From contig CP084166.1 in assembly GCA_021513695.1 (NCBI GenBank), positions 1,792,001-1,856,000 on the forward strand: DNA of 64,000 nucleotides, given 5' to 3'. Positions 4,039 to 62,404 of this stretch are shown one piece after another. The stretch is from Candidatus Heimdallarchaeum aukensis (GTDB taxonomy: Archaea; Asgardarchaeota; Heimdallarchaeia; Heimdallarchaeales; Heimdallarchaeaceae). The position numbers and the translations under genes are program-made. Numbering within the stretch: the first letter of the stretch is position 1; each line of letters begins with the position of its first letter. The notes under the pieces were generated by a model that saw only the letters and a list, made by a program, of their open reading frames with translations, did not search any database and was not told the origin of the DNA.

Positions 4039-4156
4039 TTTTTCTTCAATTTAGCTAATATGGCTCTCTAAATAAGTTTTTGCCAATGAAACTATAAAGA
4101 ATAACAAAAAGTAAATCTTATATTAAGTTATCATTCAATCGCTTGAGGAAAGAAAT

Positions 4157-6879: not shown

Positions 6880-7229
6880 TAATTGCCTTTTATGTGTTTT
6901 TCTATAATTAAATCAATTTGAAGCTTCAAGAACAATATTTTTTTAATTTAGTAAATGCGTTTAACGATGCAATCCGATAATAGTTTTTTAACAGTTCTCA
7001 ACTCTTAATTCCCTCTAACTAGAAATAAACTATATACATTTACCATAAAACTGGGTTATTACAACGTATTTAACAATATTACACCTTTTTTACGAGTTTT
7101 CATAAGTTTTCAGTATAATTCCCTCAATTTCTCCTATTTCCAATTTCTTTATTTTTTTTCGTTTTAATAAAAGAATACTTGAAAATTTTAACAGAAAGAG
7201 ATATTATTTAACACAAACATATCTAAATC

Positions 7230-10664: not shown

Positions 10665-11318
10665 CTATTGTTTTTTTGCTTCAAGGATATCTTTGACTCT
10701 TTTTAATCGAGAGAATGTTTCTCTTTCTTGTTCCTCTAAAGAACTTGCAATAAATATAGCAATTGCTTTTAGTTTAGGGATTAATATATAATTAAGAGCA
10801 TTTACCCTTCTTTTTGTTTTATTAATTTCAGAAGCTATTTTTTCTAGTAAAGTCATTTTTTCTGCAATAACCATTAATGTTTTCAAAGATTTTCGAAAAT
10901 ATGTTATTGCGAGATCAAGCTGTGCACTTGAATTTGCTAACCCATAGAAAACTTTCTCTTCTTCTGCTTCTTTAACTTCAGTAACAATAAACCTTGGTGC
11001 TTTTACACCCATTATGCTTGTTGTTAGAGTTTGAAGTTGTAGAATTTCAGGTGCATATTGTGCAAAATCTCTAATTTTGTCTGGTCCGATCATCATTTCA
11101 GCTTTGGCTAAAGCTTTATATGCTTGAAGGAGCTCCTCTTCAATTTGCTTTTTTGCTGCTCTAACTTCATCCTTAATTGCATAAAGTTCTAAGACTAAGG
11201 CATCCATTTTCTCTTTTAATAGATCATGACCTTTTTGTGCAAGTTTAATTTTTGCTCTGATATTTAACAGTTCCATACGTGTTGTCTTCACGGTACCAAA
11301 TTCAATATTGGCGCTCAT
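10665..11318 (-). CDS. atpD: A/V-type ATP synthase subunit D
   Basis: 217 aa, coiled-coil. N-terminal 'VKTTRMELLNIRAKIKLAQKGHDLLKEKMDAL' matches the subunit D signature (PTRMEL...GH.LLK.K.DAL). Confidence 0.75.
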   Translation of the reverse strand: MSANIEFGTVKTTRMELLNIRAKIKLAQKGHDLLKEKMDALVLELYAIKDEVRAAKKQIEEELLQAYKALAKAEMMIGPDKIRDFAQYAPEILQLQTLTTSIMGVKAPRFIVTEVKEAEEEKVFYGLANSSAQLDLAITYFRKSLKTLMVIAEKMTLLEKIASEINKTKRRVNALNYILIPKLKAIAIFIASSLEEQERETFSRLKRVKDILEAKKQ

Positions 11319-16745: not shown

Positions 16746-17063
16746 TTAATCAAATATTTGCTTTACAATGAGTTCAATAGCTTCTTTCTCAACTTTCTTT
16801 GCTTTTTCTTTTAATTTCATCTGCTTCTTCTCAAATTGATTTAGTAATTCATTGTAGTTTTTTTCAGCTTTGGCTTTAACTTCTTCAGTGATCTTTGATG
16901 CTTCTTCTTTAGCTTTTATTTCTGCCTCACGAATTTTTAAAATTGCTTTTTTCTCTGCTTCATTGATTGCTGACTTTTTTTCTTGTTCTGCTTGCTTCAA
17001 TTTTTGTTGATAGTTTCTTTCAGCTTCCTTTATTTTACGTAATAATTCAATTGACATGATCAT
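16746..17063 (-). CDS. atpH: A/V-type ATP synthase subunit H, a small coiled-coil stator protein
   Basis: 105 aa, almost entirely K/E-rich coiled coil. Lies immediately upstream of atpF on the same strand, as in canonical H...F operon order. Confidence 0.45.
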   Translation of the reverse strand: MIMSIELLRKIKEAERNYQQKLKQAEQEKKSAINEAEKKAILKIREAEIKAKEEASKITEEVKAKAEKNYNELLNQFEKKQMKLKEKAKKVEKEAIELIVKQIFD

Positions 17064-17253
17064 CGTCCGAATTTTTCTTATTCTTAAAATCTTAAAAATT
17101 ATCTACTTAAAATATTTTGTTGTAGCTAACAGACAATAAATTGTCGACAACTACTACTCAAAAAGAAGACTTAAAAATCACTGAAAGAAAACAATTCGTC
17201 AAGAAAAATGGAAGAAATTCTTTAGACGATGATAGTAAGTAGAAGGTGAAAGT

Positions 17254-17559
17254 ATGCGTAAATCACACGGATATAGGCATGGGACACGAAAATTATTTAG
17301 TAAAAAAACAAGAGATAAAGGGATTCGACCTCCAGATTACATATTAACTCCCTATGAGGAAGGAGATATAGTAGATATTATTATTGATCCAAGTTCTCAT
17401 AAAGGAATGCCTCATAGGAGATATCATGGAAAAACAGGAGTTATAAAAAAGAAACAAGGCGAATCTTTTATTGTAGAAATAAAACAAGGGAAAGCTATAA
17501 AAAACATAATAGCAAGAAGAGAACATATTCGAAAGTCACGCTCTCAGATTAAAGTATAA
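17254..17559 (+). CDS. rpl21e: Ribosomal protein L21e
   Basis: 101 aa. 'MRKSHGYRHGTRKLFSKK...GDIVDIIIDPSSHKGMPHRRYHGKTG' is a near-canonical eL21 sequence. Confidence 0.85.
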   Translation: MRKSHGYRHGTRKLFSKKTRDKGIRPPDYILTPYEEGDIVDIIIDPSSHKGMPHRRYHGKTGVIKKKQGESFIVEIKQGKAIKNIIARREHIRKSRSQIKV

Positions 17560-17570
17560 AAGGGATTAGA

Positions 17571-17921
17571 ATGCCAAAGAATGTTTTAAGTAAAAGGCCG
17601 TTAACTATCACTGAAGCAATGGAGATACTTCAAAAAAGAAGCGAAGAAGACGAACTGTCTTACTGGCAACGGGTAGCTTACGAACATGCAATGCAGCATG
17701 CAAGAGTAGATTCTGGAGATTCACGTAAAATCGTTGAAACCCTCATGAATGAATTTGAAATTACAGAATTATCGGCTTTTTCTATAGCAAATGTACTCCC
17801 AACAAGACCTGAAGAATTAAAAGATTTGTTACAAAAAGAACCTAAAATTTTAACTGATTCAGAAATAAAAGCTATCTTTGATTTTCTTCGACCTTTTGTT
17901 CAAAAATACCTTGGAGAATAG
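17571..17921 (+). CDS. rpoF: DNA-directed RNA polymerase subunit F (Rpb4 homolog)
   Basis: 116 aa. Found in the conserved L21e-RpoF-DUF655-KsgA gene order. HRDC-like helical pattern. Confidence 0.7.
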   Translation: MPKNVLSKRPLTITEAMEILQKRSEEDELSYWQRVAYEHAMQHARVDSGDSRKIVETLMNEFEITELSAFSIANVLPTRPEELKDLLQKEPKILTDSEIKAIFDFLRPFVQKYLGE

Positions 17922-27874: not shown

Positions 27875-27997
27875 GAGGGGATTGTCGAGCGGTCAAAGAC
27901 GACAGGCTTAAGATCACAGATTGCTTCTTTGAAAAAGGGCTAGAGAAGGAACCTGTTCCTTAGTGGTTCGGGAGTTCGAATCTCCCTCCCCTCACCA
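27875..27997 (+). tRNA. tRNA-Leu(UAA), class II, with about a 38-nt intron at 37/38 (about 27913..27950); 3' CCA encoded
   Basis: Acceptor GAGGGGA/UCCCCUC, D-stem GUC/GAC with long D-loop, anticodon stem ACAGG (27902-27906) pairing with CCUGU (27952-27956), loop CUUAAGA with anticodon UAA at 27908-27910, long variable arm, T-arm GGGAG-UUCGAAU-CUCCC, discriminator A, then CCA. The 64-aa ORF at 27963..28157 overlaps and is spurious. Confidence 0.65.
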
Positions 27998-41566: not shown

Positions 41567-43450
41567 TTACCTAACTAGAGCTGAGATAACAGCTCCTCGT
41601 TCATAAGCTTCTTTAAATAGTGCCCCCAGTTCCGAATTGCTATTAAGCTTAATTTCTGCTGTTTTTCCTACAGTTAAAGTTACAATGACTTCACCATTAA
41701 TCATTATATCAACGTCCTTACCGATACATAAATCTGGAAATACTAAGAAAATATTGTTTTTACTTTGATACACATTGAGTACATACTCCGCTTCTTCATC
41801 AAAACTGTTTTTTTGCTCAACATCACTCCATTCAGACATTTCTGAATAAGAACGCACGTCAACATTTAGATTTAATGCAGATTCTATTTTTTCTATTGTT
41901 TTTCCAGACTTTCCGATTATCTTTGCCCTGTCAGAATCACGCACGAAAAGTGTTATAGAATCAGGTTCGGTTATTTTATATTCAAAATCATACACGCCAC
42001 TATATTGTTTGAGTATTCTTTTTATTTTTTTTCGACTAATATCAATATGTTCGGTTATTGAATGGGTTTGTTTCACAGGGGTTACTATGATTTGTTCACC
42101 AAATGTGTATAACTCATATTCTAGTTTATGAGAATGAAAATCTTTTACCTCAACAACAGGTCTACTCAAATCTCTCTCTTTTAATCCTGATGGAAGTTTT
42201 ACTTTTATTGAAAGTGTATATACCTTCCTTATTTCTCCATCTTCAATAAAAATTAGTGTGTCAATAATACTTGGAATCACTCCCAAGTCTACTCTTTTAA
42301 TGAATCTTTTTACTCCGTCTATTGCAGTAGTACCATGAATAACACCAATAAGGCCAATACCAGCTAATCGTAGATCTGCATATGTTTCGAAGTCAATATT
42401 TTTCCTTAATTCATCATATACAGTATGATCTGGTCTCATAAGTAGAATGAGGTCTGCTGTAGAAGAAATATCACCTTTAAATCCACTTAACTGTGTGATG
42501 CGATCATCAACTTGTAGGTCTCGAGGGTTTTCAAAAGTTTTCACGATTTTTCCTTTATCTGCATAAAATTCTGCTAAGGCTGTTGCAAAAGTGCTTTTTC
42601 CTGCTCCAGGAGCTCCAACAATTAGAATCCCCTCACTTTTTGTCTCAATCCTTTTCAATAATTTTTTATCAAGCTTATAATCCTCAATCTTTCTTTTTAA
42701 TATCGGTCTAACTGCAGTTATCTCCATAGCATCACTAAAAGGTGGTCGGGTAATGATTATGCGCATGTTTTTCAATTGTACAACAGAAAAACCTTGCATG
42801 TCACTTTCAATAAATGACTCTGGATCTCTAGTAGCTCTTTCTACTATTTCCTTCGCTAGTTCCTCAATTTCTTCTTTTTCTAAGAAAGAATCCCCAATAG
42901 GTTGAAGATGAAAATTTCCTGGTGTACCTATTTTTGCGAGAGGCAAATTTCTTTCTCTCAAATGAACTGACATAGTTTGTTCAGTAAAATAATCATCAAT
43001 TCGTTTTCTTGGTTTTTCAGTTGTTTCTTTTAGAAAAACTACAGCTAGCCCTTCGATTTCAGCTATATGTGCTTGAACTTTATCAGCTGTTACTAAAATA
43101 GCTGAATGCTCATAAGCTAATTCCCTAATTTGAGCATCTAGTTCTCCAGATGATGCAAATTTGATTTGGTTTGGTGTTGGACGTGTGCCATCAATTATTA
43201 TTTCGATCATTTGTTCGGATGCAAAATCCTTTAAGGCAATCAATTCCTCCAAGGCTGCAACTCCAGTTGTCCTAGCTTGATTAGCTTGATGTTCTATTTC
43301 AGCGAGAACCACACGTGATAGTACAATTCTGTTGATTGTTTGTTTTTTCTTCTTTAAGTACTTTAAAAATTCTCCATTAACGATTACACTTGTGTCTGGA
43401 ACAAATGAAACATTATTATCTACATCAGACAGGTAATTCATTTTCATCAT
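41567..43450 (-). CDS. PIN-domain plus PhoH/PilT-like ATPase plus KH-domain protein (COG1855-type RNA-processing ATPase)
   Basis: 627 aa. N-terminal PIN ('FVPDTSVIVNG...'), Walker A 'GAPGAGKSTFATALA', C-terminal KH-like 'KIIGKSGKTIEKIE'. Confidence 0.6.
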   Translation of the reverse strand: MMKMNYLSDVDNNVSFVPDTSVIVNGEFLKYLKKKKQTINRIVLSRVVLAEIEHQANQARTTGVAALEELIALKDFASEQMIEIIIDGTRPTPNQIKFASSGELDAQIRELAYEHSAILVTADKVQAHIAEIEGLAVVFLKETTEKPRKRIDDYFTEQTMSVHLRERNLPLAKIGTPGNFHLQPIGDSFLEKEEIEELAKEIVERATRDPESFIESDMQGFSVVQLKNMRIIITRPPFSDAMEITAVRPILKRKIEDYKLDKKLLKRIETKSEGILIVGAPGAGKSTFATALAEFYADKGKIVKTFENPRDLQVDDRITQLSGFKGDISSTADLILLMRPDHTVYDELRKNIDFETYADLRLAGIGLIGVIHGTTAIDGVKRFIKRVDLGVIPSIIDTLIFIEDGEIRKVYTLSIKVKLPSGLKERDLSRPVVEVKDFHSHKLEYELYTFGEQIIVTPVKQTHSITEHIDISRKKIKRILKQYSGVYDFEYKITEPDSITLFVRDSDRAKIIGKSGKTIEKIESALNLNVDVRSYSEMSEWSDVEQKNSFDEEAEYVLNVYQSKNNIFLVFPDLCIGKDVDIMINGEVIVTLTVGKTAEIKLNSNSELGALFKEAYERGAVISALVR

Positions 43451-44003
43451 TCTCCTTTTCTTTATTAATAGTGGGAAAATCTAACGATTTTACTGAATAA
43501 TAGTTTACATCGCCTAAACTATCAATCACTGCAAAAATTAACTTTAATCCCATATAATCTGCTTTAGATACTATTTTCTCGATTTGGTCAATATTAAACA
43601 TTACTCCTTCAACAAAAGGAACAATTAAAGCATATTTAGTTTCTTTTTTCTTATTAGGAGAAGCTCCCCTTTCGTATAATGTAAAAAAGCTAAGTGATTG
43701 TTCATATTTTTTCACCACATAACCCCTCCCTCTTAAATCTTTAAACAATAAATAATAAACCAAGAAACTTGGAAATAATTTTGAGAAATAAGAAATTAAT
43801 TCTGATAGGGACAACTCTTTTTCTTCTTCATCAACAACAATTATTCGTTTTCTTTCCATCAATAAGACAGCTTCATAAGGTTCTAAAATAAGAGTGCCAT
43901 TATCCGATAATTCACCGTACCATCCTGTACTGTAGAGATCATTAGCTATTCTCGTATCATAAACCACTACTTGATTTCCAACTATTTTAGCATTGAAAGA
44001 CAT
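43425..44003 (-). CDS. endA: tRNA-splicing endonuclease (EndA family)
   Basis: 192 aa. 'YYLLFKDLRGRGYVVK', 'LYERG' and C-terminal 'LKLIFAVIDSLGDVNYYSV' match the EndA core (Y.DLR.RG..VK...LYERG...K..iA.VDadGdv.YY). The expected catalytic His in the 'HS.Y.V' context is not apparent ('ETKYALIV'). Confidence 0.55.
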   Translation of the reverse strand: MSFNAKIVGNQVVVYDTRIANDLYSTGWYGELSDNGTLILEPYEAVLLMERKRIIVVDEEEKELSLSELISYFSKLFPSFLVYYLLFKDLRGRGYVVKKYEQSLSFFTLYERGASPNKKKETKYALIVPFVEGVMFNIDQIEKIVSKADYMGLKLIFAVIDSLGDVNYYSVKSLDFPTINKEKENDENELPV

Positions 44004-44964: not shown

Positions 44965-46194
44965 TTATACTACGTCTTCTTGAACACGAGTCCTAGGCAA
45001 AATTGTACTGCCAGCAGCTATTTTCCTACCAGGAAAGATCATTGAATTTACTCCAATTATACAATTATCACCGATTATTGCTCCAAGTTTAGTGAGACCA
45101 GTGTCAATTTTTTGCCCATTTACATTCATCTTTATTGGTTTAATTGGGGTTTCAGTGTTTACGGTCATAACATTAGTTGAAAGAGTCGTATTTTCTCCTA
45201 TAACACTATCACCAACATAACATAATCTGTAGATTTTTGTACCAGAAAATAAGACTGAATTTTTAATTTCGCTCCCAAAGCCTATTAAAGAATCTGAATC
45301 TATTGATGTATGATCTCTCAATAACACATTGTTACCGATATATGTATTAGGCCCAATATACAATGGACCATTTAGAACAGTGCCAGAGCTTATTATTGTA
45401 TTTTCGTCTATGATAACCACATTTTTTAGCACAACATTAGATTCAATTGTAACATTACTTGCGATTCTTGATTCTGTAAGTTTAGATAAAAGCAAACGAT
45501 TTGCTTCAATAATGTTCCATGGCTTTCCAATATCGATCCACTCTTTTTCCCATATTGCAGCAATAACTTTATCTCCTTTCTTTATTCTTGCATTAATTGA
45601 TTTAGGTATATTAGGATGAACTTCCAATTCATCAAATATAGTTGTTTTTAGAACAAAACACCCTGCATCTATATAGTTGCTTTTTGTATCGATTTCAGTC
45701 GCTAGGCCTACAGATTTCACATATCCCTTATAATCCATGTCTACAACTCCGAAGTTTCCCGTATCACCTTTTAATGTCAGTGCCATTGCCATATCTGCTT
45801 GGGTGTTTTCATATGCATTGAGCGTTCTTTGGATTAAGCCTTTTTCTGCTATTATGTCACTAAACAAGAGAAGAAATTCATCATCATTTGCTAAGTATTT
45901 TTTTGCAGCAAGAAAAGCAGATTTAATATCGTTTTCTTTACTCTGCTTAGCATATGAAATTGATAAACCAAATTCCGACCCTTTTTTAAAGTAATCTTTT
46001 ATTTGCTCTCCTTTATATCCTATAACAATTAATATTTTTGTTACGCCCAGTGATTTCAACTCTTCAATTATATATTGTAAAATTGGTTTTCCTAGTAATT
46101 TAATCATAGGTTTTGGTTTAGTTTGGGTTAGTGGGAATAGTTCTCTACCCTCACCACCAGCAAGAATAACTGCTTTTAGTTCTTTTTTTGCCAT
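44965..46194 (-). CDS. Bifunctional sugar-1-phosphate nucleotidyltransferase / acetyltransferase (archaeal GlmU-like: N-terminal NTP-transferase plus C-terminal left-handed beta-helix)
   Basis: Start placed at 'MAKKELKAVILAGGEGRELFPLTQTKPKPMI' (G-x-G-x-R nucleotide-binding loop). The C-terminal half has hexapeptide repeats ('IGENTTLSTNVMTV', 'IGDNCIIGVNSMI'). The track ORF begins 3 codons earlier. Confidence 0.7.
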   Translation of the reverse strand: MAKKELKAVILAGGEGRELFPLTQTKPKPMIKLLGKPILQYIIEELKSLGVTKILIVIGYKGEQIKDYFKKGSEFGLSISYAKQSKENDIKSAFLAAKKYLANDDEFLLLFSDIIAEKGLIQRTLNAYENTQADMAMALTLKGDTGNFGVVDMDYKGYVKSVGLATEIDTKSNYIDAGCFVLKTTIFDELEVHPNIPKSINARIKKGDKVIAAIWEKEWIDIGKPWNIIEANRLLLSKLTESRIASNVTIESNVVLKNVVIIDENTIISSGTVLNGPLYIGPNTYIGNNVLLRDHTSIDSDSLIGFGSEIKNSVLFSGTKIYRLCYVGDSVIGENTTLSTNVMTVNTETPIKPIKMNVNGQKIDTGLTKLGAIIGDNCIIGVNSMIFPGRKIAAGSTILPRTRVQEDVV

Positions 46195-46348
46195 TAGCTC
46201 CATTCTCCTATTATTTTTTTAAAAACATTTTTAATAAGTCTTTTCGAACTTAAAAACAACCTTAGCTCAAAAAAAGTATACATAGAATTAATAAAAGCGT
46301 TATGCAGTTTTTGAAAAGAATAGATAAAAATATTTTTTGACATTATTA

Positions 46349-48175
46349 TCACAACACTGTTACACTTTTTGCCAAATTTCTTGGTTTGTCAGGCGAATAT
46401 CCTCTCTTAACTGCAGTATAATAAGCAAGCAATTGTAGGGGAACAACATATGGAATTGTTGAGAATATTTCAGAGTATCCTTGAGGAATTTTAAAACTCC
46501 AAGTTACAAGGTTTTTTATTTCATCATCATTTTCTTCAATAACACCAATAGTAGATGCTCCTCTAGCATTCATTTCCATAATATTTGATTGAATCAACCT
46601 ATAGGTGTGATCCTTTGGTGCAATAAATACAACAGGGAAATCTTTTTCTACCAAGGCAATTGGACCATGTTTTGATTCTCCAGCGGGATATGATTCACAG
46701 TGAATATAAGATATCTCTTTCATTTTCAAAGCTCCTTCATTTGCTGTTTGCACGTTTATTCCACGTGCCAAATAAAAACCACTTTTCTTTTTCGAAAACC
46801 AGTTAGCGACTGTTCTAGCTTGAACTTCATTATTTGTAATGGTTGTTTTAACTATTTTGGGGAGCTGATTGAATTTTTCTCTGTGAGATTCATACTCTGT
46901 TTTATTAAAAGCACCACTTAAAAGACCTAATTCTAAGCCTACATCCCAGTTAGCTATTGTTTGTGCAAGATATGTTTTTGTTGCTGCAACGCCAATTTCA
47001 GGTCCTGCATGGAGATATATAACTTCATCTGAATATCTAGTAATTGTACTACCTACTACATTTACTATAGAGAGAATGGATGCACCCTGTTCTTTAGCTT
47101 TTTTAATACCTAAAATTGTGTCCATTGTTTCTCCAGATTGACTCACAGGAACTACAACTGTATTCTCATCAATTAAGTCTAAAATTGATTCAAATTCAGA
47201 AGCAATTATTGATTGACTTAGTTTCTTATTAAATTTTCTTACTAAATACTCTCCCGTTAATGTTGAATAATATGCTGTTCCTGCAGCAACAAAAAAAATT
47301 CTTTCTGCTGCATGTATCTTTTCTGCTATTTTTTTTACAGATTTTTGCTTCATTCGTATGTAGTTATACAAAGAATTTGGTTGTTCGTGAATTTCTTTTA
47401 GCATAAAATGAGGGTATCCAGCCTTTTGAGCCATTTCTGCTTTCCAAGAAACAGTATATGGAGTACGCGTTATATGTTCCTTAGATTTTAGATTAACAAT
47501 ATCATAACCATCACTTCTTATCTCTACAAACTCATTATCATGCAAAAGCACCACTTGTTGAGTTTGATCAAGAAATGCGGGAATATCACTAGCTACAAAA
47601 ATTCTATTTGAATTTAAACCTATTACTAGGGGGCTGTCTTTTTTAGCACAATAAATCTTTTGAGGTTCATTCGTGCTTATGACACAAATGGCATATGTTC
47701 CTACTAGTTGTTCAATAGCTTTAATTACTGCTTCTCGGAAATCTAACTGCTCGTTGATAAAAAAATCTTCGATAAGGTGACTGATTACTTCTGTGTCCGT
47801 CTCAGAACTGAATTTATGTCCTTTCTCCTTCAAAGTTCTCCTTAATTCCTGAAAATTTTCAATAATTCCGTTATGAACAACAGCAATTTTTCCATCACAA
47901 CTAACATGAGGATGCGCATTTATTTTTGAAGGTGGGCCGTGGGTAGCCCATCGTGTGTGTCCTATAGCTATTTTTCCGGATATTGGGGAAATATCAATTT
48001 TTTCTACTACTTCATTTATTTTTCCTTTATCTTTTTGGACAATAAGGTTATCATTTTCTATAATTGCAACCCCTAAACTATCATATCCTCTATACTCCAA
48101 TTTTTGAAGAGCTTGAATAATTTCTACACCAATTTTTGTCTCATTTTTTTGAATGATTCCTACAATTCCACACAT
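46349..48175 (-). CDS. glmS: Glutamine--fructose-6-phosphate aminotransferase (GlmS)
   Basis: Start placed at 'MCGIVGII' (N-terminal nucleophile Cys). Ntn glutaminase domain plus two SIS domains ('VVPVSQSGET', 'GESKHGP'), ending '...AKSVTVL'. The track ORF carries a 27-codon spurious leader. Confidence 0.9.
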   Translation of the reverse strand: MCGIVGIIQKNETKIGVEIIQALQKLEYRGYDSLGVAIIENDNLIVQKDKGKINEVVEKIDISPISGKIAIGHTRWATHGPPSKINAHPHVSCDGKIAVVHNGIIENFQELRRTLKEKGHKFSSETDTEVISHLIEDFFINEQLDFREAVIKAIEQLVGTYAICVISTNEPQKIYCAKKDSPLVIGLNSNRIFVASDIPAFLDQTQQVVLLHDNEFVEIRSDGYDIVNLKSKEHITRTPYTVSWKAEMAQKAGYPHFMLKEIHEQPNSLYNYIRMKQKSVKKIAEKIHAAERIFFVAAGTAYYSTLTGEYLVRKFNKKLSQSIIASEFESILDLIDENTVVVPVSQSGETMDTILGIKKAKEQGASILSIVNVVGSTITRYSDEVIYLHAGPEIGVAATKTYLAQTIANWDVGLELGLLSGAFNKTEYESHREKFNQLPKIVKTTITNNEVQARTVANWFSKKKSGFYLARGINVQTANEGALKMKEISYIHCESYPAGESKHGPIALVEKDFPVVFIAPKDHTYRLIQSNIMEMNARGASTIGVIEENDDEIKNLVTWSFKIPQGYSEIFSTIPYVVPLQLLAYYTAVKRGYSPDKPRNLAKSVTVL

Positions 48176-50448: not shown

Positions 50449-51264
50449 TTAATAGTCTTCGTCATCATATTCGTAATCTTCTTCGTCTGCAACACTTTCA
50501 ATTCTTGGGGCTAGCATATAATGTAGATATCCTTTATTCTCTAAATTATATTCAAGAATAATGGGTTTATTTGTTGCAAAACCAATAGTGAGAGTCTCTG
50601 AGGATCTAATACCTTTCATAAAATTGTTCAAGAATTCAAGAGAATAGGAAGACTCGGATTCTTCTATAATTTCAAAAGACTCAGTTTCTATTTCTTCACT
50701 TTCAGGACCAACTACTGTTTCCATCTCATTTGAAAAACTTGAGCAACTAAAGATTACTTTATCAGGAAAGGCATGTATTTTAAAATGATCACTTATCATC
50801 ATCGAATCTTTTAATACTTGTTGAAAGAATGAGGCATCAATATTAAATTGTGCAGTCCTTAATATTTTTACTTTGTCAGGAGGAGGATTATCATCTTTAA
50901 TATCGATCATTTTCAAAGTAAAACTTCTTTCTCTATTTTTTGCCTTGAATACAATGCGTAAACGCTGTTCTCTTTCGTCGAAATTCAAATTTAAAACTTC
51001 ATCCTTTTTTGCTGTTTTTAGCATATTGTTGAAAGTCTCTAAGTTTAATCCTAAGGAAAAACTATTGTCTACCTTAAATTCTTGGAAAGCTTCCTTTTTC
51101 AAAACAAAATCAAACATTGATATTCTTGTTGGATCAAAAGTTTTTATTTGAATACTGTCCTTATTAATGCTTAAAAAACATTCAGAAACAATTGAACTAA
51201 TAATTGAAATATTACTAGCTAAAATCTTTGAATTTTCGTTATCAAGTTGTAGATCGAAACTCAT
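50449..51264 (-). CDS. pcna: DNA polymerase sliding clamp PCNA with an unusual acidic C-terminal tail
   Basis: 271 aa. Two-domain clamp pattern with '...YMLAPRIE' near the C-terminus, extended by 'SVADEEDYEYDDEDY'. Confidence 0.8.
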   Translation of the reverse strand: MSFDLQLDNENSKILASNISIISSIVSECFLSINKDSIQIKTFDPTRISMFDFVLKKEAFQEFKVDNSFSLGLNLETFNNMLKTAKKDEVLNLNFDEREQRLRIVFKAKNRERSFTLKMIDIKDDNPPPDKVKILRTAQFNIDASFFQQVLKDSMMISDHFKIHAFPDKVIFSCSSFSNEMETVVGPESEEIETESFEIIEESESSYSLEFLNNFMKGIRSSETLTIGFATNKPIILEYNLENKGYLHYMLAPRIESVADEEDYEYDDEDY

Positions 51265-51611
51265 TGTAATTCCCCTAACTCAATTTATTACTATCTTTAG
51301 TCTACATGTAAAAAAACATTTAGCTATTTAAGGGAATCGTCAGTAGTTTATTTAGTAAAGAAAGATAAAATTGAATATTTCTAATAGTGTCTCTTTTTTT
51401 CTTTGGGTTTCTTATCTATTAAAGAGGTAAAGGAATTACCAAAAAGAGTGATAACAATGTTTGACCCAGTAGAAGATATGCCAGACGATGCAGATTGCAT
51501 CCCTCCTTTATACTTTCCTTAAGTGGTAAAGGAACTCATTTCTTTTTTTTTTTATTTTTTATTTGGTTGAAAAATAATAAAATAATAAAATGATAAAAAA
51601 AGTGGTTAAGT

Positions 51612-53066
51612 CTAAATGTCTGTTCTATTAAAGTCGATATTTTTATCTCTAAACTTTGGATGAAACTTTTTAATAACCTCAATAGGAATACGTTTAAGTA
51701 CACGTTCTGGATCGTCGAAAATGGATAATAGTTCCCATCCTAAATCTAAGCTTTCAAAAATTGTTCTGTCTTCATGGTAATCTTGGTTAATGAATTTTTC
51801 TTCAAATAAATCAGCAAATTGTAAGGTTTTTCGATCTAAATCCGAAAGGCTTTCTGAACCAACAACAGCAACAAGATCCCTTAGATCCCTACCATCTGCA
51901 TATAAAGCATACAACTGGTCAGCCACATACTTATGATCACTACGAGTGGAATTAATACCTATACATTCCTTCATAAGACGGCTTAAACTAGGTAAAGGAT
52001 TAATAGGTGGGTACAAACCCTTGCGGTTTAAGCCTACATCAATGTAGATTTGGCCCTCTGTAATATAACCAGTTAAATCAGGAACTGGATGGGTGATGTC
52101 AAAATTTGGCATTGTTAAGATTGGAATTTGCGTAATGGAGCCTTTTTTACCGCGTATTTTTCCTGCTCTTTCATATATTGTAGCAAAGTCGCTGTATAAA
52201 TAGCCTGGGTATCCTCTTCTTCCAGGAACTTCATTTCTTGCAGCTCCTATCTCCCTCAGTGCTTCTGCATATGTGGTCATATCAGTTAATATTACTAATA
52301 CTTGGTATCCTTTCTCAAAAGCTAGATATTCAGCAGCTGTTAGAGCAATTCTGGGAGTTAGTAATCTTTCTACAGCAGGATCATCTGCAAGATTCAAGAA
52401 CAGCACAGTTCGTTCTAAAGCACCGGTTGATTCAAAATCATCTCTGAAGAATCTTGCTTCGTCAGCTGTTAACCCCATGGCACAGAAAACGACTGCAAAA
52501 TTTTCTTCTTCACCCAAAACTTTTGCTTGTCTTGCAATTTGGGCTGCGATTCTGTTGTGAGGTAACCCACTACCTGAAAAGAGAGGTAATTTTTGTCCTC
52601 TAACCAATGTAAGCAGCGTATCAATAGTAGAAATACCTGTTTGAATAAACTCTTTTGGATATTCTCTAGCTGAGGGATTAATGGGAGCTCCATTTATGTC
52701 CAGAATTTTTTCTACAGCAACAGGGCCTCCTCCATCAATTGTTATTCCTCTTCCACTAAAAACTCTTCCTAATATTTCGTGGCTCACTCCAAACTCCATT
52801 GTACGGCCTAAAAATCGAACTCTAGTTTTATCTGTCTCTAAACCTCTTGTTCCTTCAAAAACTTGAACTACGGCTAAATTTCGGGATACTTCCAGTACCT
52901 GTCCATTTCTTTTTTCTCCATCTACTGTTTCAATTTGAACAATTTCACCATATGAAACTCCACCTTTATTCCTTAAGTCAACAAACAGTAGAGGTCCACT
53001 TACTTGTTGGACTGTTTGAAATTCTCTATAATTTAATTGTAACTTTTCGTCCATTTTTTTCACCAC
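51612..53066 (-). CDS. atpB: A/V-type ATP synthase subunit B
   Basis: 484 aa. '[15 protein letters not shown]', 'YPGYLYSD' and '[11 protein letters not shown]' are diagnostic of the regulatory B subunit. Confidence 0.9.
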
Positions 53067-53068: not shown

Positions 53069-56000
53069 TTAACTCAAATCCTCCACGCCTACATCTGTAG
53101 GACTGATACCATCAATTTCAGCAATAAGAGCGTTTATTTCCTCTTCTACATCTTCTTGTACGATATACTTCATTCTTGCGATTTTAACCACAACATCGTG
53201 CTCAAATATGTTCTTGACCTCTGCACCTCTCTGATACAGATCATTCGCCTTATGATAGAAACTTAATATCGCCTTTAGCATAAGATATTGTTTTTGCATA
53301 CTACAAAACGAATCGACTTCATGAAAAGCATTCTGCTGTAGAAAAGACTCTTTTATTATTCTAGCAATTTCTAAGACGATTTTCTCTTTAGGGGGAAGAG
53401 CATCAGGACCTACAAGAGAAACAATTTCAGAAAGTTCTTTATCCTTTTGTAACAATGCCATAGCTTCTGCACGCAATTCTGGGAATTCAGGATCAATATT
53501 AGTTGAATACCACTCTTGTAATACGTTCCAATATAATGTATAGCTTAAAAGGTAATCAATAGCAGGAAAATGTCTTCTTGCGGCAAGATCCTTGCTTAAT
53601 GCCCAGAACACTTTTACTATCCTTAAAGTGTTTTGAGTAACTGGCTCACTAAAATCGCCTCCAGGGGGGCTCACAGCTCCAACAACTGTAATACTAGCAG
53701 TTCTTGGTTCTGATCCTAAAGTCAGCACTCTACCAGCTCTTTCATAATATTGTGCAACTTTTGAAGCCAAATAAGCAGGAAAACCTTCTTCACCAGGCAT
53801 TTCTTCTAGTCTTCCAGATATTTCTCTTAATGCCTCAGCCCATCGGGAAGTTGAATCAGCCATCATTGCTACATCATAACCCATATCTCTAAAGAATTCA
53901 GCCATTGTTATTCCAGTGTAAACACTTGCTTCTCTTGCAGCTACAGGCATGTTGGAAGTGTTAGCTATTAATGTAGTTCTATCCATTAGGGGGCCACCAG
54001 TATACGGATCAACAAGTTTAGGGAACTCTCTTAAGACATCAGTCATCTCATTTCCTCTTTCACCACAACCTACATAAACAACTATCTTAGCATCCGACCA
54101 TTTAGCTAGTTGATGCTGTGATACAGTATTATGTAGGGTGAATGGTAATTCTCCTCCAACAAAGTTGTGATATTCGTCTACTGTTAAATCATAGACATCA
54201 GTTTCCTGTTCGATTATTGAAATTTCTTTTATTCTATCGAAAAACACATGTTCTACTAATTCCTGAAGATAGGCTCGATTACTAAAATCATCCAAAGTGT
54301 TAGTATCAAAATTAGAATTTGTTACATCTACCACTTGTTCTATTACGACAGAACTATTATTTGACTGAACAACTTTTCTTGCTAATTGTGTAATATTATT
54401 AGTTTCTTGATACTGGTATAGTTGGTACATTTTTTCATGTTTAGTGGTATTATAATGAGAGAACTTTTCTATCAACTTCAGTAGTTCTTTCTCTTTTATT
54501 TCGAAAACAAAGTTGTTTTGATCTTTTAGATTATAAACAACACCTAATCGTGTTAGGAGATAAGAAAATTCTGATAATTGGAATTTGTTTTTATGATATA
54601 TTTGAAGAGTAGTATCATTGAACGATGTATTTATTACAAAGTAACCATTTAGATAATGAACCAACAGCTCATCGGATGATTGCATCAAGAGTTTTGGAAC
54701 ACGAACATCAGAATCTGTCAAACTGCCTTTAAGTCCAAGATATTGAAGGAATTTAACAACTACAGAACTTGAAAAATGTACAAAATTTTCCCCTATTGTG
54801 TTATCATAATCATAGGCACAAAATAGTCCAAATATTTGCTCAGTAAGATCATTAAAACGATTCAACAAAAAATCTGAATTTGTGCTAAAGAAAATAGTTT
54901 CATCTCTAATGATACCATTAGCTGTAAAGAGTCCTAACCATTCAGCAAGTTCATTAGTCATGTAAACAGGTAACTTCACAACTGAAGAATTAGTTTCTTC
55001 ACGTAATACAGAAACACTGATTTCTGGTTCTCCAGCTAATTTAGTTAGTTTATGTAAAAATGCTAAATTAGGCTCTTTTTCTTTGTTTAAATATTTCATT
55101 AAAATGTTGAATGAAACATTAGTTTTTTGAGCAATTTCTTCCAAAGACATTACTTCACTTAGTTTGTTGATAATTTCTTCCATCCTCATTAAAGCTTGTG
55201 TGTCAGCAACTCTAAGTGATAGATCGATATCATAGGCACTAATAGGATTTTGTTGTCCTTTAATTTGAAGATGGCGAGGAACAATAAGCAAATCACCGGG
55301 TCGTAGATACTGTGATTCTACCTCTTCTATTTTGCGTCCATTGAATCTAAAAAGTTTATGAACAGGTGTAACAGTAACTTCTCTTCCACTATCTGTTTTT
55401 ACACTTACCAGTCTTGACGTTTTTCCACGATAAATGTAACTTGCTTTTTGCTCAACATATGATTCTCCATTAAAACTTAGTATAGAAAGGTCACCGGTAA
55501 TTTTTATCAGAGTTTCATTTTCATTATCTAATTCAATCAATCCATCATTTTGAATAAAACTTTTATAAAGATCCTTTATTTCTACCAAACTTCCATCGCT
55601 TAGGAATACTGGAGTGGAACCAACAACACATTTCCCAGTCCCAAAACCGCCGGGAATTGCTCCAGTTCCTCCTTTTGCAATAGGGGCGAAAGTATCAAAT
55701 ATTCTTTGCCCAGTTATCAGGGGGACATTACTTGGTAAACGTTTATATATTGGTCTAGGAGTTCGGACAGGCCATTTATGGAAAAATTGTAAATCTATCT
55801 TTTCTCCACTAGCTGTTAACACTGTTGCTGCAGTTTCATCTATGGTGTAATCGCCTGCAGGAGCAATGTATTCTAGAGTTCCCTTTATATAAGGAGGTAC
55901 CAACAGCTTAAAATCAACTGTAGGCGTTTCAGGAATAATTCCTAATATATCTCCGCCTACCACCTTATCTCCTTTCTTAAGTATTGGACGAAAATCCCAT

Positions 56001-56356
56001 AATTTTTTGTGATCTAATCCTGGAACATCAATTCCTCGAGAGATATTGTCTCCTGTCAATTTTTGTATTTCTGGAAGAGGACGTTGAATTCCATCATATA
56101 TTTGACGAAGTAAACCAGGACCTAGCTCTACTGAAAGAGGATTATTTGTGGGGTACACAGGTTCTCCGGGTGTTAGACCGTCAGTACTTTCATAAACTTG
56201 AATTGTAGCTACATCACCTTCTAGTCTAATTATCTCACCAACTAGTCGTTCATTCCCTACTCTTGCAACATCATAAAGTTTAGCCCCAAGCATGTTAGAT
56301 GCTTGCACTACAGGACCTGATATTTTATTTATTACTCCAACTTTGGCATCATTCAT
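53069..56356 (-). CDS. atpA: A/V-type ATP synthase catalytic subunit A, interrupted by a 501-aa intein in the P-loop
   Basis: 1095 aa against the usual 580-590. The N-extein ends '...[10 protein letters not shown]'. The intein runs from C243 ('[14 protein letters not shown]...') to '...FTLHN' at residue 743. The C-extein resumes '[28 protein letters not shown]...'. Splicing restores GGFGTGKT. Confidence 0.9.
54128..55630 (-). mobile_element. Intein (VMA-type, P-loop insertion site) with a LAGLIDADG-like homing endonuclease domain, probably degenerate
   Basis: Begins with Cys after GK and ends with His-Asn followed by Thr. Block G-like '[15 protein letters not shown]'. Two LAGLIDADG-like motifs, '[10 protein letters not shown]' and '[12 protein letters not shown]', both carry Asn where the catalytic Asp/Glu is expected. 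Confidence 0.8.
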
Positions 56357-56455
56357 TCTCTATCTTTCTCGCTTCTGATAAACCACTGTAAAAAAAGAAT
56401 TTTTTAAGTTTATCTAAGAGAACAAGAAATCACAACCCAAGGTTTTTTTGAATTT

Positions 56456-57010
56456 CTATATTGTTCTGACAGAGCCACCTAATTTATTTGTAATAAAATC
56501 AGTAATTTCTTCTATCGTTTTTTTATTATCACAGTATATTGCATGTTCCTTAAGCTCAGGAAGCCATTTTTTATAAATATAGAATTTTTTAGAAAAGGGT
56601 TGAGTCGAAGAATATTCCTTACATTTCTCTATTAATGCTTTATTTTTTGAATAGGTAACGCTAGCTAAAATACAGTATTTATAGGAGTAAGTAGGGCCAT
56701 TATCAGAATACGAAACTTTAAACCAACTTTCATTTGTAACATCTTCTTCATGTTTTTGAATAGTCAAATTAGAAAGTTTTTCTTTTGAACACAATTTTTT
56801 TTCTAGCTTGAGTAGCTCGATATAATCTGTTTCTGTGATAGGTAAATTTAGGAAATTATATCTATATTCAAAATAATCTATTCTTCGCTCAATAAACTTG
56901 AATAAAGAATCAGATAACTCAGCTCTACAATGACTCAACTTGTTTTTCAATTCTGATAAAAAAGAGGGTATATCAGGATAATATTTACAAAACTCGTCCA
57001 TATCAATCAT
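56456..57010 (-). CDS. Hypothetical Cys/Tyr-rich protein upstream of atpA
   Basis: 184 aa with no recognisable motif. Same strand as atpA, 100 nt upstream of it. Confidence 0.4.
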   Translation of the reverse strand: MIDMDEFCKYYPDIPSFLSELKNKLSHCRAELSDSLFKFIERRIDYFEYRYNFLNLPITETDYIELLKLEKKLCSKEKLSNLTIQKHEEDVTNESWFKVSYSDNGPTYSYKYCILASVTYSKNKALIEKCKEYSSTQPFSKKFYIYKKWLPELKEHAIYCDNKKTIEEITDFITNKLGGSVRTI

Positions 57011-57080
57011 TTGTTTATCATAAATATAATGGAAAAATAGTATAAAAAACTAAAAAAAAAGCAAGATGTTATAAATTTAA

Positions 57081-58262
57081 TTAAAGTTTAACAACCCAAG
57101 GTTCAGTTTGTCTATTAGTTAAAAAAATGCAGCCATTTTCAGTAACCCTAATCATTTCTTCAATTGAACAATATCCATATCTTTGCAAATAAACATGTAG
57201 CTCTAGTGTAAAAATATTATTTTCCTCAATTTTCAATTCTGGTGCTTGTCCATATTTCTCCCACCTTGGCCCAATTAAGCAGCCACCATCATGAACATTA
57301 ATACCCACTTGATGACCTAATGCATGCATAAATTCAGAGTAACCAGCAGAAATAATATATTCTCGAGCAATCTTGTCAATCTCACATCCTTTTACTCCAG
57401 GTCTAATCTTACTGGCAGCTTCTGTAATTGCATTCTTACAAGTGTTAAATGCTTTTTCAACCTCATCTGGAACAGAATTTTCATTATCACCAAGAACATA
57501 TGTTAATCTTTGAATATCAGAAGCATAACCACCATATATTACTCCATAATCAACATTTACGAGATAACCACGTTTCACAGAGATTTTTGAAGAAGGATCA
57601 CCATGTCCAATAACAGTTTCTGGACCAACATTAATTAAAGGAGGATAAGCATACTTAACTCCAAATCTTTCATTATTGGCTTTTAGAATATTCGCAAGGT
57701 CAGTTTCAGTCATTCCAAGTTGTATACTATCTTTTAATAATTCATGACCTATTTCACTTATTTTTATAGCTTGTTTAATTCTCTCTACTTCTTCAGGGGT
57801 TTTCCTTCCTCGTAATGCAGACAATATTTTTTCAGAAGATACTAATCTATCCTTATATGGAGTGTCTTCAAGGATCTTTCTTAATTTTAAGAATAGACCA
57901 TAGGTTAATCCATCAGCTGCAACATTATCTTCAGAATAGTTAATTGCAATTGTTTTAGGTTTATAGCGCCCTAAAATATTAAGCAACCCATCCTTGATTC
58001 CTAAATCATAGAGTATAATTTCATCATAGATTTCTTGTTTTTCAATATTAGGAGCATCGTATCGACCTACAATTACTATTTTTTTGCCTTCTTTAGTCAA
58101 AATGAAACATGTTTGCCAAGTTAACCAAGTGGAGTCTGTTAAAAAGAAAAGACTTGGATCATGAATCTCTGATGTTTTTCTGACATAAGTCAACCACATG
58201 TCAATATCTAGCTCTTGAAGGATTGCTATTGCTTGATTTACTTTTTCTTTTATTAAACACAT
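57081..58262 (-). CDS. M24-family Xaa-Pro aminopeptidase / prolidase
   Basis: 393 aa. N-terminal creatinase-like domain and a pita-bread domain carrying 'HALGHQVGINVHDGG' and 'TLELHVY'. Confidence 0.8.
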   Translation of the reverse strand: MCLIKEKVNQAIAILQELDIDMWLTYVRKTSEIHDPSLFFLTDSTWLTWQTCFILTKEGKKIVIVGRYDAPNIEKQEIYDEIILYDLGIKDGLLNILGRYKPKTIAINYSEDNVAADGLTYGLFLKLRKILEDTPYKDRLVSSEKILSALRGRKTPEEVERIKQAIKISEIGHELLKDSIQLGMTETDLANILKANNERFGVKYAYPPLINVGPETVIGHGDPSSKISVKRGYLVNVDYGVIYGGYASDIQRLTYVLGDNENSVPDEVEKAFNTCKNAITEAASKIRPGVKGCEIDKIAREYIISAGYSEFMHALGHQVGINVHDGGCLIGPRWEKYGQAPELKIEENNIFTLELHVYLQRYGYCSIEEMIRVTENGCIFLTNRQTEPWVVKL

Positions 58263-58349
58263 AAATCATTATTAATACTCAAGGATTTAAAATTTATTGA
58301 AAAAAATTATCTAAAAAATCACAAAATTTTTTTTATCTTCTTTAGATTC

Positions 58350-59156
58350 TTGAATATGGGCATTTTACAGTTTTTACTAGTTGTTCTTTCTTTGATAATA
58401 ACGATCATTATTCTTTTTCTGCTAATAATTAAAAATGAAGAAAAGAAAAGCAAATACTTTTGGATTGTTTTTATAGGTGCTATGGGGTGGTTAATTGCAT
58501 TTCTTTTGCGTATTATTCCTCTAAATCTTGCTAAATCACTCACACTAGTTTCTCTAGGAATAGATTTATCAGATACACAAGCAGTACAAGCTGCGTCACA
58601 TAATGTTATAGTCCTTATGTGGGGGCCTATTTTTGCAGGTTTATTTGAGGAATTTGGCAGATATTTTCTTATTTCAAAAATAAGAGATGTAAAATCTAAT
58701 TATCCAAAAGGTCCAATAATATTAGGGATAGGGTGGACTTTAGGAGAGATAATTTACATCTATACAGCATACTTAATCTCGATGAACACATTAAATATAC
58801 CTTGGGAAACATCTGCATGGTCACTTGTATTAGCAAGTTTATTTGAACGTTTTACAGTTTCTGTTTTTCATGTCTTGATGAGTTTAGTCATTTTTCAGTC
58901 AATTCTTGAAAAACATTTGATGAAAAGATACGGATTGTGGATAGCTATAACTCTACACATACTATTTGATGGATTAATTATTGTGTGGATAATATTCTTT
59001 CCTTTAAAGAACCTCATTAATATTTGGACTTTAGAGATGGCTTTTGCATTTCTAACTCTAATTACTTTGATATTCGTTTCAAAGTATTGGGATAGAAAAA
59101 TAAGAGAAAAACTAAGTTTAATATCAAACGAAGAAGCAATTAGTTTAATAACTTAA
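58350..59156 (+). CDS. CPBP-family intramembrane glutamic endopeptidase (CAAX protease / Abi-like)
   Basis: 268 aa, polytopic. Motif 1 'FAGLFEEFGRYFL' (EExxxR), motif 2 'FHVLMS' (FxxxH), motif 3 'HILFDGL' (HxxxD/N). Confidence 0.55.
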   Translation: MNMGILQFLLVVLSLIITIIILFLLIIKNEEKKSKYFWIVFIGAMGWLIAFLLRIIPLNLAKSLTLVSLGIDLSDTQAVQAASHNVIVLMWGPIFAGLFEEFGRYFLISKIRDVKSNYPKGPIILGIGWTLGEIIYIYTAYLISMNTLNIPWETSAWSLVLASLFERFTVSVFHVLMSLVIFQSILEKHLMKRYGLWIAITLHILFDGLIIVWIIFFPLKNLINIWTLEMAFAFLTLITLIFVSKYWDRKIREKLSLISNEEAISLIT

Positions 59157-59202
59157 AAAGCAAAATGCAAAAATTTTTGAATTTTTTCTTCTTTTTTAGA
59201 AC

Positions 59203-61324: not shown

Positions 61325-61340
61325 ATAGAAAATAAAATTA
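61325..61340. repeat. Left copy of the 16-bp direct repeat flanking the IS-like element
   Basis: 'atagaaaataaaatta' is identical to 62360-62375. The preceding 4 nt are nearly identical too (tatt vs taca). Confidence 0.6.
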
Positions 61341-62359
61341 TGTTTACTCAATAGACTTGGGTTACACTTTTGGGCAATAGAGAAACATAGGGGTGATTCA
61401 TAAATCTTTCTCCTGGGGTGAGGAAGTTAAGAGATTGGTGAGGACGACTAAAATTGTAGTAAGAGCGGTAGTAGGAGAGATCAGCGTTGCAGTATTTTAG
61501 ACCTAATCTTTCCATCTCACGGATGATGGTTGGGTCCCATGTAGTCTTTCTACTTTTCCACATGTTTCGGGGTGAAAAACTCTAGCTCTGATGTGTTTTA
61601 TTTCCTCTGTTTGGCACCAACGGGAGAAGGTACTTGTTCCTCCTCTAACGGAAGAGAAGAGTGCTCCATTGTCCGTGAGGATAGACTCGGGGTAACCGTA
61701 CTCTTTTATTGCTTCCTCTAGCAAACTTATTATCTGCTCTTTTTTTGGCGCAAAAGGGTGGAATTTAGCTCCCAGACAGAATCGTGAGTGGTCGTCTATC
61801 AAGGTTATGAGGTGGAGATGTTGTCCCTGTTCTTCTACCCAGAATGGCCCTTTCACATCTATTTGCCAGAGTTCGTTAGGTTTTTGACGTTCAAAACTCT
61901 TGTATCGAGGTCTCTTCCTCTTTTTTCTATTAACCCATAAAGGAAGACCTAACTCTTTTATTACTTTCGTCACTGTCGTCTGAGAGAGTGCTTTTCCTTC
62001 TCTCTTCAACAAATAAGCTATCTTCTCCACATTCATTCCTTGTTTTATTCTTAACTCCCTTATCCTCTCTTTTAACTCCTCATCTACTTTTTTGTGTATA
62101 GTTTTTGGTCTGGAAGATCTATCTTTCCACCAACCATTCTCCTTCAGGGTTCTCTCTGAACCTCTTCAACCACTTATACACAAACTTCCTACTCACCATA
62201 TACTTGTGAGCTATCTCTTTTATCTTTTCTCCTTCCAAAGCTTTTTTAACCACAATCTTTCTTAGTTTCTCCAGGTTACGTTCGGGTTTGTTCATAATAT
62301 ATCACTTACCCACGTAACCCACTTCTATTTATTTGTTACCAATGTGAGTTGAGTATACA
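61341..62359 (-). mobile_element. IS-like element, about 1.0 kb, with imperfect terminal inverted repeats and a frameshifted DDE transposase; higher GC than its surroundings
   Basis: Ends are 'TGTTTACTCAA...' (61341) and '...TTGAGTATACAA' (62359). The reverse complement of the right end, TTGTATACTCAA, matches the left end, and both ends contain a nearby GGGTTAC motif. Flanked by identical 16-bp direct repeats. The interior is visibly more G+C-rich. Confidence 0.6.
61348..62295 (-). pseudogene. DDE (rve-family) transposase/integrase split into three reading frames: HTH orfA 62295..62119, core 62165..61503, C-terminal 61563..61348
   Basis: orfA begins 'MNKPERNLEKLRKIVVKKALEGEKIKEIAHKYMVSRKFVYKWLKRFRENPEGEWLVER*' (HTH). 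The next frame is shifted by +1 relative to orfA and carries '...NELWQIDVKGPF...HLITLIDDHSRFCL...ILTDNGALFSS' (DDE core). A third frame carries 'YNFSRPHQSL', the rve C-terminal motif. Confidence 0.65.
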
Positions 62360-62375
62360 ATAGAAAATAAAATTA
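62360..62375. repeat. Right copy of the 16-bp direct repeat flanking the IS-like element
   Basis: 'atagaaaataaaatta' is identical to 61325-61340. Confidence 0.6.
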
Positions 62376-62404
62376 GAATAAAATATTCTTCAAATTATAC
62401 AATT

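Follow-up and report, generated by a model that had tools for sequence, protein, structure and literature searches.

The gene for the catalytic A subunit of the A-type ATP synthase (atpA) of Candidatus Heimdallarchaeum aukensis, an Asgard archaeon, carries a 501-residue intein within the P-loop, and asparagine stands at both catalytic acidic positions of the LAGLIDADG endonuclease domain of this intein. The gene lies in a 64-kb stretch of contig CP084166.1 (positions 1,792,001 to 1,856,000), hereafter the window. The explanation we favor, and regard as very probably correct, is that the insert is an intein of the VMA-b family that is expected to splice, that its endonuclease is probably dead, and that a folding constraint keeps the dead domain under selection. 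Below, we discuss the anatomy of the intein, the state of its endonuclease, and the selection and exchange that have shaped it among Heimdallarchaeum lineages.

An intein between the lysine and threonine of Walker A

The 1095-residue open reading frame (ORF) that contains the insert is the precursor of AtpA. Its product is identical to UJG39833.1 of H. aukensis by exact-sequence look-up, and it matches the Pfam families ATP-synt_ab_N, ATP-synt_ab_Xtn, ATP-synt_ab and ATP-synt_VA_C, together with Intein_splicing (PF14890; E-value 8.6e-21; 74.8 bits against a cutoff of 35.8). The intein occupies exactly positions 54128-55630 of the minus strand, from the Cys1 codon (55628-55630) to the Asn501 codon (54128-54130), and splits the GKT of the Walker A motif between lysine and threonine (GGFGTGK / CVVGST...FTLHN / T+1). 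A sequence-only reading that preceded this analysis had placed a 501-residue intein here, with coordinates that proved exact to the base, and the motifs it quoted lie at intein residues 230-239, 326-336 and 479-490. Read on the plus strand, the interval is riddled with stop codons, which agrees with a gene on the minus strand, and a tblastn search of the 64-kb window found no second intein-like sequence.

The splicing blocks and junctions are intact, as the same reading had claimed. Cys1, the nucleophile, is the first intein residue; the block B motif T88-P-V-H91 lies at 55358-55369, with T88 and H91 nearly invariant in an alignment of 33 sequences; and the C-terminus reads TLH500-N501, followed by Thr+1 (TVSQ). 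Membership in the HINT fold is indicated by the PF14890 match above cutoff and by an AlphaFold2 (AF2) model that resembles intein structures. Removal of the insert regenerates GKT: the spliced extein aligns without gaps across this motif to the spliced subunit A of Pyrococcus horikoshii (GTGK/TVSQ against GSGK/TVTQ), and its length of 594 residues equals that of the closest intein-free relative (P0202), in which the residues around the insertion point are the same.

Swithers et al. place site b at Lys240/Thr241, and the yeast site a at Gly260/Cys261, of P. horikoshii subunit A (PMC2814812). Because the insertion point aligns with Lys240/Thr241 and the intein is homologous to known VMA-b inteins, the insert is, judged by its sequence, a class-1 intein of the VMA-b (vma-1b) allele at a long-known archaeal site and not at a new insertion point. 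Its best match among PDB sequences is TliVMA (7QSS; E-value 1.2e-36), followed by 7QSU, a deletion variant of TliVMA, PhoVMA (7QST; 1e-29) and the Thermoplasma volcanium VMA mini-intein TvoVMA (4O1S; 1.1e-26). The paper that describes the TliVMA and PhoVMA structures assigns both inteins to VMA-b, within the subunit A P-loop (PMC8966425). The yeast VMA1 intein (PI-SceI) resides in a homologous host, the catalytic subunit of V/A-ATPases, and likewise combines HINT and LAGLIDADG domains, but it is inserted at VMA-a, before CGERGNEM. This motif is intact in the C-extein of H. aukensis, and Thr+1 lies 20 residues upstream of it (counted to the glycine before CGERGNEM), in agreement with the earlier statement that the two sites differ.

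Because the splicing residues are intact and purifying selection on the exteins is very strong, we infer that the intein splices. In the mechanism we propose, the split HINT domain (intein residues 1-120 and 461-501) would excise the 501-residue insert after translation in the four steps of the standard pathway: Cys1 undergoes an N-S acyl shift, the chain is passed to Thr+1 by trans-esterification, Asn501 cyclizes with the help of His500, and an O-N shift completes the reaction. GK and T would thereby be rejoined to give the normal 594-residue catalytic A subunit.

It is scarcely credible that the insert is instead a non-splicing lineage-specific insertion, or that it reflects an atpA pseudogene or an assembly artifact. 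Such a reading could draw on a frameshift inside the intein in one public assembly of the same strain (L083; Logan SRR15988958), which truncates the predicted AtpA (P0004). However, over window positions 54228-59158 this assembly differs only by three single-base homopolymer deletions (at 58334, 57127 and 54793), a pattern of sequencing error, and we therefore dismissed P0004 as a sign of gene decay and treat it as an artifact. Moreover, there are at least six independent full-length copies of 1095 residues, the ratio of non-synonymous to synonymous substitution rates (dN/dS) of the exteins is 0.005-0.055, every splicing residue is intact, and a 501-residue P-loop insert that is not removed would abolish nucleotide binding.

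The endonuclease domain and its accessory regions

The endonuclease-fold domain of the intein aligns with that of TliVMA, in which LIADG stands opposite FTANG and IVCDG opposite FVINT (the longer TliVMA segments opposite the two Asn-bearing motifs are LAEFLGYLIADG and FINAYIVCDG). An exhaustive HMMER search with intein residues 121-461 returned 217 relatives, many of which are AtpA proteins of the same architecture with 30-36% identity that carry AEG or ADG in block C and GDG in block E. Both catalytic columns are acidic in 131 of 159 related domains, a single one in 22 and neither in 6; counts for each column are given in Table 1. The residue after the second catalytic position, Thr335 in H. 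aukensis, is glycine in 122 of the 159. Columns 238, 334 and 335 deviate within an otherwise conserved endonuclease fold, in which the fold-determining residues P221, L228, A229, L232, G233, G239, F267, G268, S288, G299, P312, L359 and G363 are all kept.

The predicted structure places the two asparagines where the catalytic acids of LAGLIDADG endonucleases are expected. In the AF2 model, which was built on the 33-sequence alignment (predicted local distance difference test (pLDDT) score 88.7; predicted template-modeling (pTM) score 0.87), helices 226-238 and 320-334 end with Asn238 and Asn334, respectively, and both helices lead into beta strands, in keeping with the pseudo-symmetric alpha-beta-beta-alpha-beta-beta-alpha fold of LAGLIDADG endonucleases, at whose interface the two motif helices pack. 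The top Foldseek matches of the model are 7QSS, 7QSU, 7QST, PI-PkoII, PI-PfuI and PI-SceI; others include I-DmoI, I-Tsp061I and the WhiA structures 3HYI and 8DY9. The alignment profile and the modeled helix ends thus confirm the sequence-only reading that both LAGLIDADG acidic positions are asparagine.

These substitutions bear directly on activity. The I-SceI double mutant D44N/D145A binds its target site without cutting it (PMC2685105), and PhoVMA, which lacks the block C and block E acids, is inactive and regains activity when those residues are grafted back (PMC8966425). As both metal-binding acids are lost in the H. aukensis intein (Asn238 and Asn334), its endonuclease domain most likely cannot cleave DNA. 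Candidate substrates for the intein endonuclease are the reconstituted site, GCAATTCCCGGCGGTTTTGGGACTGGGAAA followed by ACTGTATCACAGCATCAACTAGCTAAATGG, and the natural empty site of a related locus (L090). We do not rely on a possible third catalytic defect, a missing lysine in block D, because the evidence for it is weak: the position is Thr305 in H. aukensis and lysine in close VMA-b relatives, but lysine occurs in just 66 of 152 domains overall.

Between HINT-N and the endonuclease lies a segment (intein residues 121-205) that has no counterpart in TliVMA or PhoVMA and appears as a gap between residues 120 and 205 in the alignment to 7QSS. It is conserved among related VMA-b inteins, and AF2 models it as a compact helical domain, with helices within residues 132-199 at pLDDT above 90. 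Scored alone, the segment falls short of the cutoff of the helix-turn-helix (HTH) family HTH_3 (18.7 of the required 23 bits; E-value 0.0019). The same family is hit, at E-values up to 0.1 (best 3.6e-5), by 13 of 21 homologous inserts, and a profile of the homologous inserts matches MBF1/XRE structures at 1.7e-6. We therefore describe it as an HTH_3/XRE-like domain on the strength of profile matches and the predicted fold. As an accessory domain at the HINT/endonuclease junction, it is reportedly of a general kind that Beyer and Iwai have discussed. The region after the endonuclease (residues 373-460) is the least conserved and least constrained part of the intein; its pLDDT falls below 50 for residues 413-446, and its counterpart in a loose alignment with TliVMA is the part holding the TliVMA accessory domain.

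Known relatives differ from the H. aukensis intein in informative ways. TliVMA is the best match in structure as well as in sequence (Foldseek E-value 1.1e-29; template-modeling scores 0.66/0.76) and shares both the site and the domain order of HINT, endonuclease, further region and HINT. Unlike the H. aukensis intein, it keeps aspartate in both motifs, lacks the HTH insert at the HINT-N/endonuclease junction, and is an active homing endonuclease (PMC8966425). PhoVMA has the same host protein, Lys/Thr P-loop site and Cys1/His-Asn/Thr+1 junctions, and its HINT and LAGLIDADG domains are homologous to those of H. aukensis (Foldseek E-value 3.5e-25). Its block C also carries asparagine (MANG, against TANG in H. 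aukensis), and its block E is likewise without an acid, although the defects arose differently: the 376-residue PhoVMA has a deletion that shortens helix 2, whereas the 501-residue H. aukensis intein has a full-length helix 2 with the point substitution Asn334. PhoVMA further differs in having no HTH_3-like domain and in residing in Thermococcales rather than in an Asgard host. PI-SceI is a more distant structural match (Foldseek E-value 3e-10; root-mean-square deviation about 25 A overall), with an active endonuclease (Asp218 and Asp326) and a DNA-recognition region built differently.

The combination of HTH and endonuclease domains recurs in uncharacterized metagenomic VMA-b inteins, for example P0052, P0053 and P0054, which share with the H. 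aukensis intein the domain order in AtpA, the EWLGLF motif and 30-36% identity over the HTH and endonuclease domains. Unlike the H. aukensis intein, they keep the acids (AEG or ADG, and GDG) and are presumably active. By their sequences, they appear to represent the state of the H. aukensis intein before the loss of its active site.

Selection, distribution and exchange among Heimdallarchaeum lineages

Pairwise Nei-Gojobori dN/dS was calculated by region among three intein-bearing lineages: H. aukensis (the window and near-identical metagenome-assembled genomes), H. endolithica (P0011 and L085) and a third lineage assembled from L081, L082 and L084. A scan of metagenome contigs with the intein yielded a single partial locus, L084. 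Four proteins from ENA metagenome assemblies (P0001, P0002, P0003 and P0017) were trimmed at their termini before analysis; their ends carried unrelated sequence (for example ...SYTHLTLPTN and LLYTSPSPRDLSTSRMPSSA) or an unrelated N-terminal fusion, with an adapter-like or chimeric appearance. Block E is asparagine in all three lineages, which are separated by a synonymous divergence (dS) of about 0.66, while block C is asparagine in H. aukensis and H. endolithica and glycine in the third lineage.

Constraint is graded along the protein. dN/dS is 0.005-0.055 in the exteins, about 0.05 in HINT-C, 0.12-0.16 in HINT-N and 0.13-0.20 in the HTH domain (where the value of 0.20 for H. aukensis against H. 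endolithica rests on too few changes). In the two comparisons with the third lineage, dN/dS of the endonuclease domain is 0.21-0.23, with p for a ratio below 1 of about 1e-9; between H. aukensis and H. endolithica it is 0.55, from 6 synonymous and 12 non-synonymous changes, and not significant. The region after the endonuclease evolves at 0.29-0.45 (0.41-0.45 in the two third-lineage comparisons). Degradation is thus confined to the active site, and the endonuclease domain is under purifying selection and is not drifting neutrally. The earlier description of a decaying endonuclease accordingly holds for the active site, but not for the domain, whose dN/dS is about 0.2 and whose fold is predicted with confidence. 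Purifying selection on the dead domain most plausibly reflects a folding constraint in an essential protein, since a misfolded insert would keep the HINT halves apart and inactivate the ATPase.

The same pattern could be read as co-option, in which the excised intein serves as a sequence-specific DNA binder made of an HTH domain and a dead LAGLIDADG domain, comparable to WhiA, or as a conditional switch in ATPase maturation. WhiA, a regulator that combines LAGLIDADG and HTH domains, is among the fold matches; both domains of the intein are confidently predicted; both evolve at dN/dS of 0.13-0.23 in the third-lineage comparisons despite a long-lost active site; and inactive LAGLIDADG variants can keep DNA binding (PMC2685105). 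However, DNA binding is weakened in PhoVMA (PMC8966425), the intein is absent from most relatives, including the closest outgroups, and folding constraint in an essential host protein accounts for the same dN/dS. In addition, the HTH domain is gone from a related, more degenerate allele (P0242), as decay but not function predicts. We therefore consider co-option decidedly improbable, and folding constraint remains our preferred account of the selection.

The nearest intein-free AtpA proteins, all from Heimdallarchaeaceae, have 88%, 82% and about 80% extein identity. One of them, at locus L090, has exactly the uninterrupted site, in which every amino acid and 47 of 60 nucleotides are the same. 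The VMA-b intein of P0242, a Heimdall-type AtpA of 991 residues on a JGI contig, is shorter and has no HTH domain; with cysteine at the block C position and no acid in block E, it is a more degenerate relative. Empty sites, the full-length intein with a dead endonuclease and the degenerate P0242 look like successive stages of the homing cycle. The sequence-only reading had called the intein fixed, which is borne out within the Heimdallarchaeum clade but not among these relatives; moreover, the intein-bearing segment has moved between two Heimdallarchaeum species.

This movement is recorded as a mosaic tract in the atpA gene of H. endolithica. In flanking DNA and at the ends of atpA, H. endolithica is 96-100% identical to the third lineage, whose intein is only 73-75% identical at the protein level. 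Within a tract of ~2.4 kb, comprising the intein, about 510 nucleotides of extein with a fuzzy, patchy edge and about 350 nucleotides with a sharp edge, it is instead 93-100% identical to H. aukensis and 8-36% different from the third lineage. Informative sites of aukensis type and third-lineage type number 337 and 49 inside the tract against 20 and 261 outside it (Fisher p 3e-106), and over the whole of atpA H. aukensis and the third lineage differ by an even dS of about 0.6-0.7. These data are most simply read as replacement, in the H. endolithica lineage, of its resident intein allele by an aukensis-like segment, at a time when the block E aspartate had already been lost. We considered the tract as a homing footprint, as its form resembles co-conversion, and did not adopt this interpretation because the closest relative of the recipient already bears the intein and because other tracts of high identity occur in the window. 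In the roughly 37 kb of the window covered by the H. endolithica comparison, where median identity is 88.5%, these include 781-6947 (93.4%) and parts of 45300-47100, with an overall range of 93-98%. Such tracts suggest frequent recombination between the two Heimdallarchaeum species and, because they are similar to the atpA tract, the latter needs no explanation beyond ordinary homologous recombination between species that co-occur. With an endonuclease that most likely cannot cleave DNA, the intein would now be inherited along with its essential host gene, or carried by such recombination, and would not be spread by homing.

Several points weigh against the explanation we favor. The LAGLIDADG_3 family scores only 16.3 bits on the intein, below its threshold of 22.5, so that the fold is assigned from homology with TliVMA and from the structural model. 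Some function beyond folding could be retained in the supposedly useless domain, given its dN/dS of 0.2, and exchange of the segment after loss of the block E aspartate could indicate residual mobility. Taken broadly, the proposition that the HTH and dead LAGLIDADG domains are kept for more than foldability, whether as a domesticated DNA-binding protein like WhiA or as an element still mobile without canonical residues, which would account for the intein-centered exchange, seems to us unlikely.

The stronger form of the mobility argument holds that the endonuclease is still active, as a nuclease or nickase, through non-canonical residues, or is mobilized in trans by an active relative, and that the exchange was homing with co-conversion. 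The H. endolithica tract, which extends about 350-500 nucleotides to each side of the intein, the empty sites with identical amino acids in related Heimdallarchaeaceae and the purifying selection on the endonuclease and HTH domains are all compatible with this view. However, asparagine stands in blocks E and C of donor-like and recipient alleles alike, and block E has in addition lost the glycine that follows. Equivalent substitutions abolish cleavage by I-SceI (PMC2685105), and natural PhoVMA without the same residues is inactive (PMC8966425). Furthermore, a site already occupied, as in the closest relative of the recipient, is no target for homing, and tracts of similarly high identity occur elsewhere in the ~37 kb compared. 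These observations leave an active endonuclease very improbable, and we retain the reading of a VMA-b intein whose endonuclease is probably dead.

Significance, genomic context and other features of the window

The VMA-b site and an inactive endonuclease of the same kind, that of PhoVMA, are already known, and the current understanding of inteins is unchanged by this case. The VMA-b family was reportedly first described in Thermoplasmatales and Thermococcales, and the H. aukensis intein adds an Asgard (Heimdallarchaeia) example. Of modest interest beyond the sequence-only reading are the HTH_3-like domain, the purifying selection on a dead domain and the exchange between species. A single family here displays an intermediate stage of the homing cycle, with empty sites, a dead-endonuclease intein under purifying selection and a shorter, degenerate relative. 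The HTH_3-bearing subfamily, with its apparently active members P0052-P0054, may also be a source of new rare-cutting endonucleases. In practical terms, because public annotation omits the intein (the record of UJG39833.1 is labeled just 'V-type ATP synthase subunit A'), analyses of the length, domains or phylogeny of Asgard ATPases should mask the insert. A literature search combining 'Heimdallarchaeum' and 'intein' returned nothing.

Table 1. Coordinates in the window of the atpA gene, the parts of its intein and the H. endolithica mosaic tract
Feature	Position	Strand	Evidence
atpA precursor, 1095 aa	53069..56356	-	ORF, Pfam, exact-sequence look-up
N-extein, aa 1-242, ends GGFGTGK, the first part of Walker A	55631..56356	-	dN/dS 0.03-0.055 between lineages
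VMA-b intein, 501 aa, Cys1 to His500-Asn501	54128..55630	-	Junctions, Pfam, TliVMA homology, AF2, Foldseek
HINT N-terminal part, intein 1-120, with Cys1 and TPVH	55271..55630	-	Aligned to residues 5-125 of TliVMA/PhoVMA; dN/dS 0.12-0.16
Helical accessory domain, intein 121-205, HTH_3/XRE-like	55016..55270	-	Gap in 7QSS alignment, HTH_3, AF2
LAGLIDADG endonuclease-fold domain, intein 206-372, without both catalytic acids	54515..55015	-	TliVMA alignment, Foldseek, dN/dS 0.21-0.23
Asn238 codon AAT, end of LAGLIDADG helix 1, block C, D/E expected	54917..54919	-	D or E in 161/177 related domains
Asn334 codon AAT, end of LAGLIDADG helix 2, block E, D/E expected	54629..54631	-	D or E in 141/161 related domains
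Region after endonuclease, intein 373-460	54251..54514	-	dN/dS 0.41-0.45, indels between lineages, partly predicted disordered
HINT C-terminal part, intein 461-501, blocks F and G, ...TLHN	54128..54250	-	dN/dS about 0.05
C-extein, aa 744-1095 and stop, starts with Thr+1 of GKT, CGERGNEM intact	53069..54127	-	dN/dS 0.005-0.015
aukensis-like tract of H. endolithica atpA, intein and extein flanks	53775..56140	-	Informative sites, sliding-window identities

The G+C content of the intein (30.9%) is near the window average of 32%, and that of the exteins is 39.0%. Archaeal genes surround atpA, among them those for PCNA, GINS51 and a tRNA-splicing endonuclease, and the neighboring PCNA, M24 peptidase, Hef-like helicase and PIN ATPase belong to the same H. 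aukensis genome. The atpA-atpB pair stands apart from the remaining A-ATPase genes (window 50449-53066 and 56456-58262 around atpA): atpB is followed by the PCNA and GINS51 genes, and atpA is preceded by a 184-residue ORF without a Pfam match and the M24 peptidase gene. In the syntenic H. endolithica locus L088, the ATP-synt_D gene lies far off (16998-17663), and the window ORF at 10665-11318 is its presumed counterpart, a candidate by synteny.

Other features of the window concern mobile DNA and tRNA genes. The segment at 61338-62387 has two matches of 96-97% identity at distinct positions of the H. endolithica locus L086, beside rve (integrase-core) genes, and is probably a multi-copy insertion sequence common to both species. 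Rfam tRNA matches at 627-737 (111 nucleotides) and 27875-27994 (120 nucleotides), neither of which was called by ARAGORN, are probably intron-containing archaeal tRNA genes, and the tRNA-splicing endonuclease gene lies at 43425-44003.

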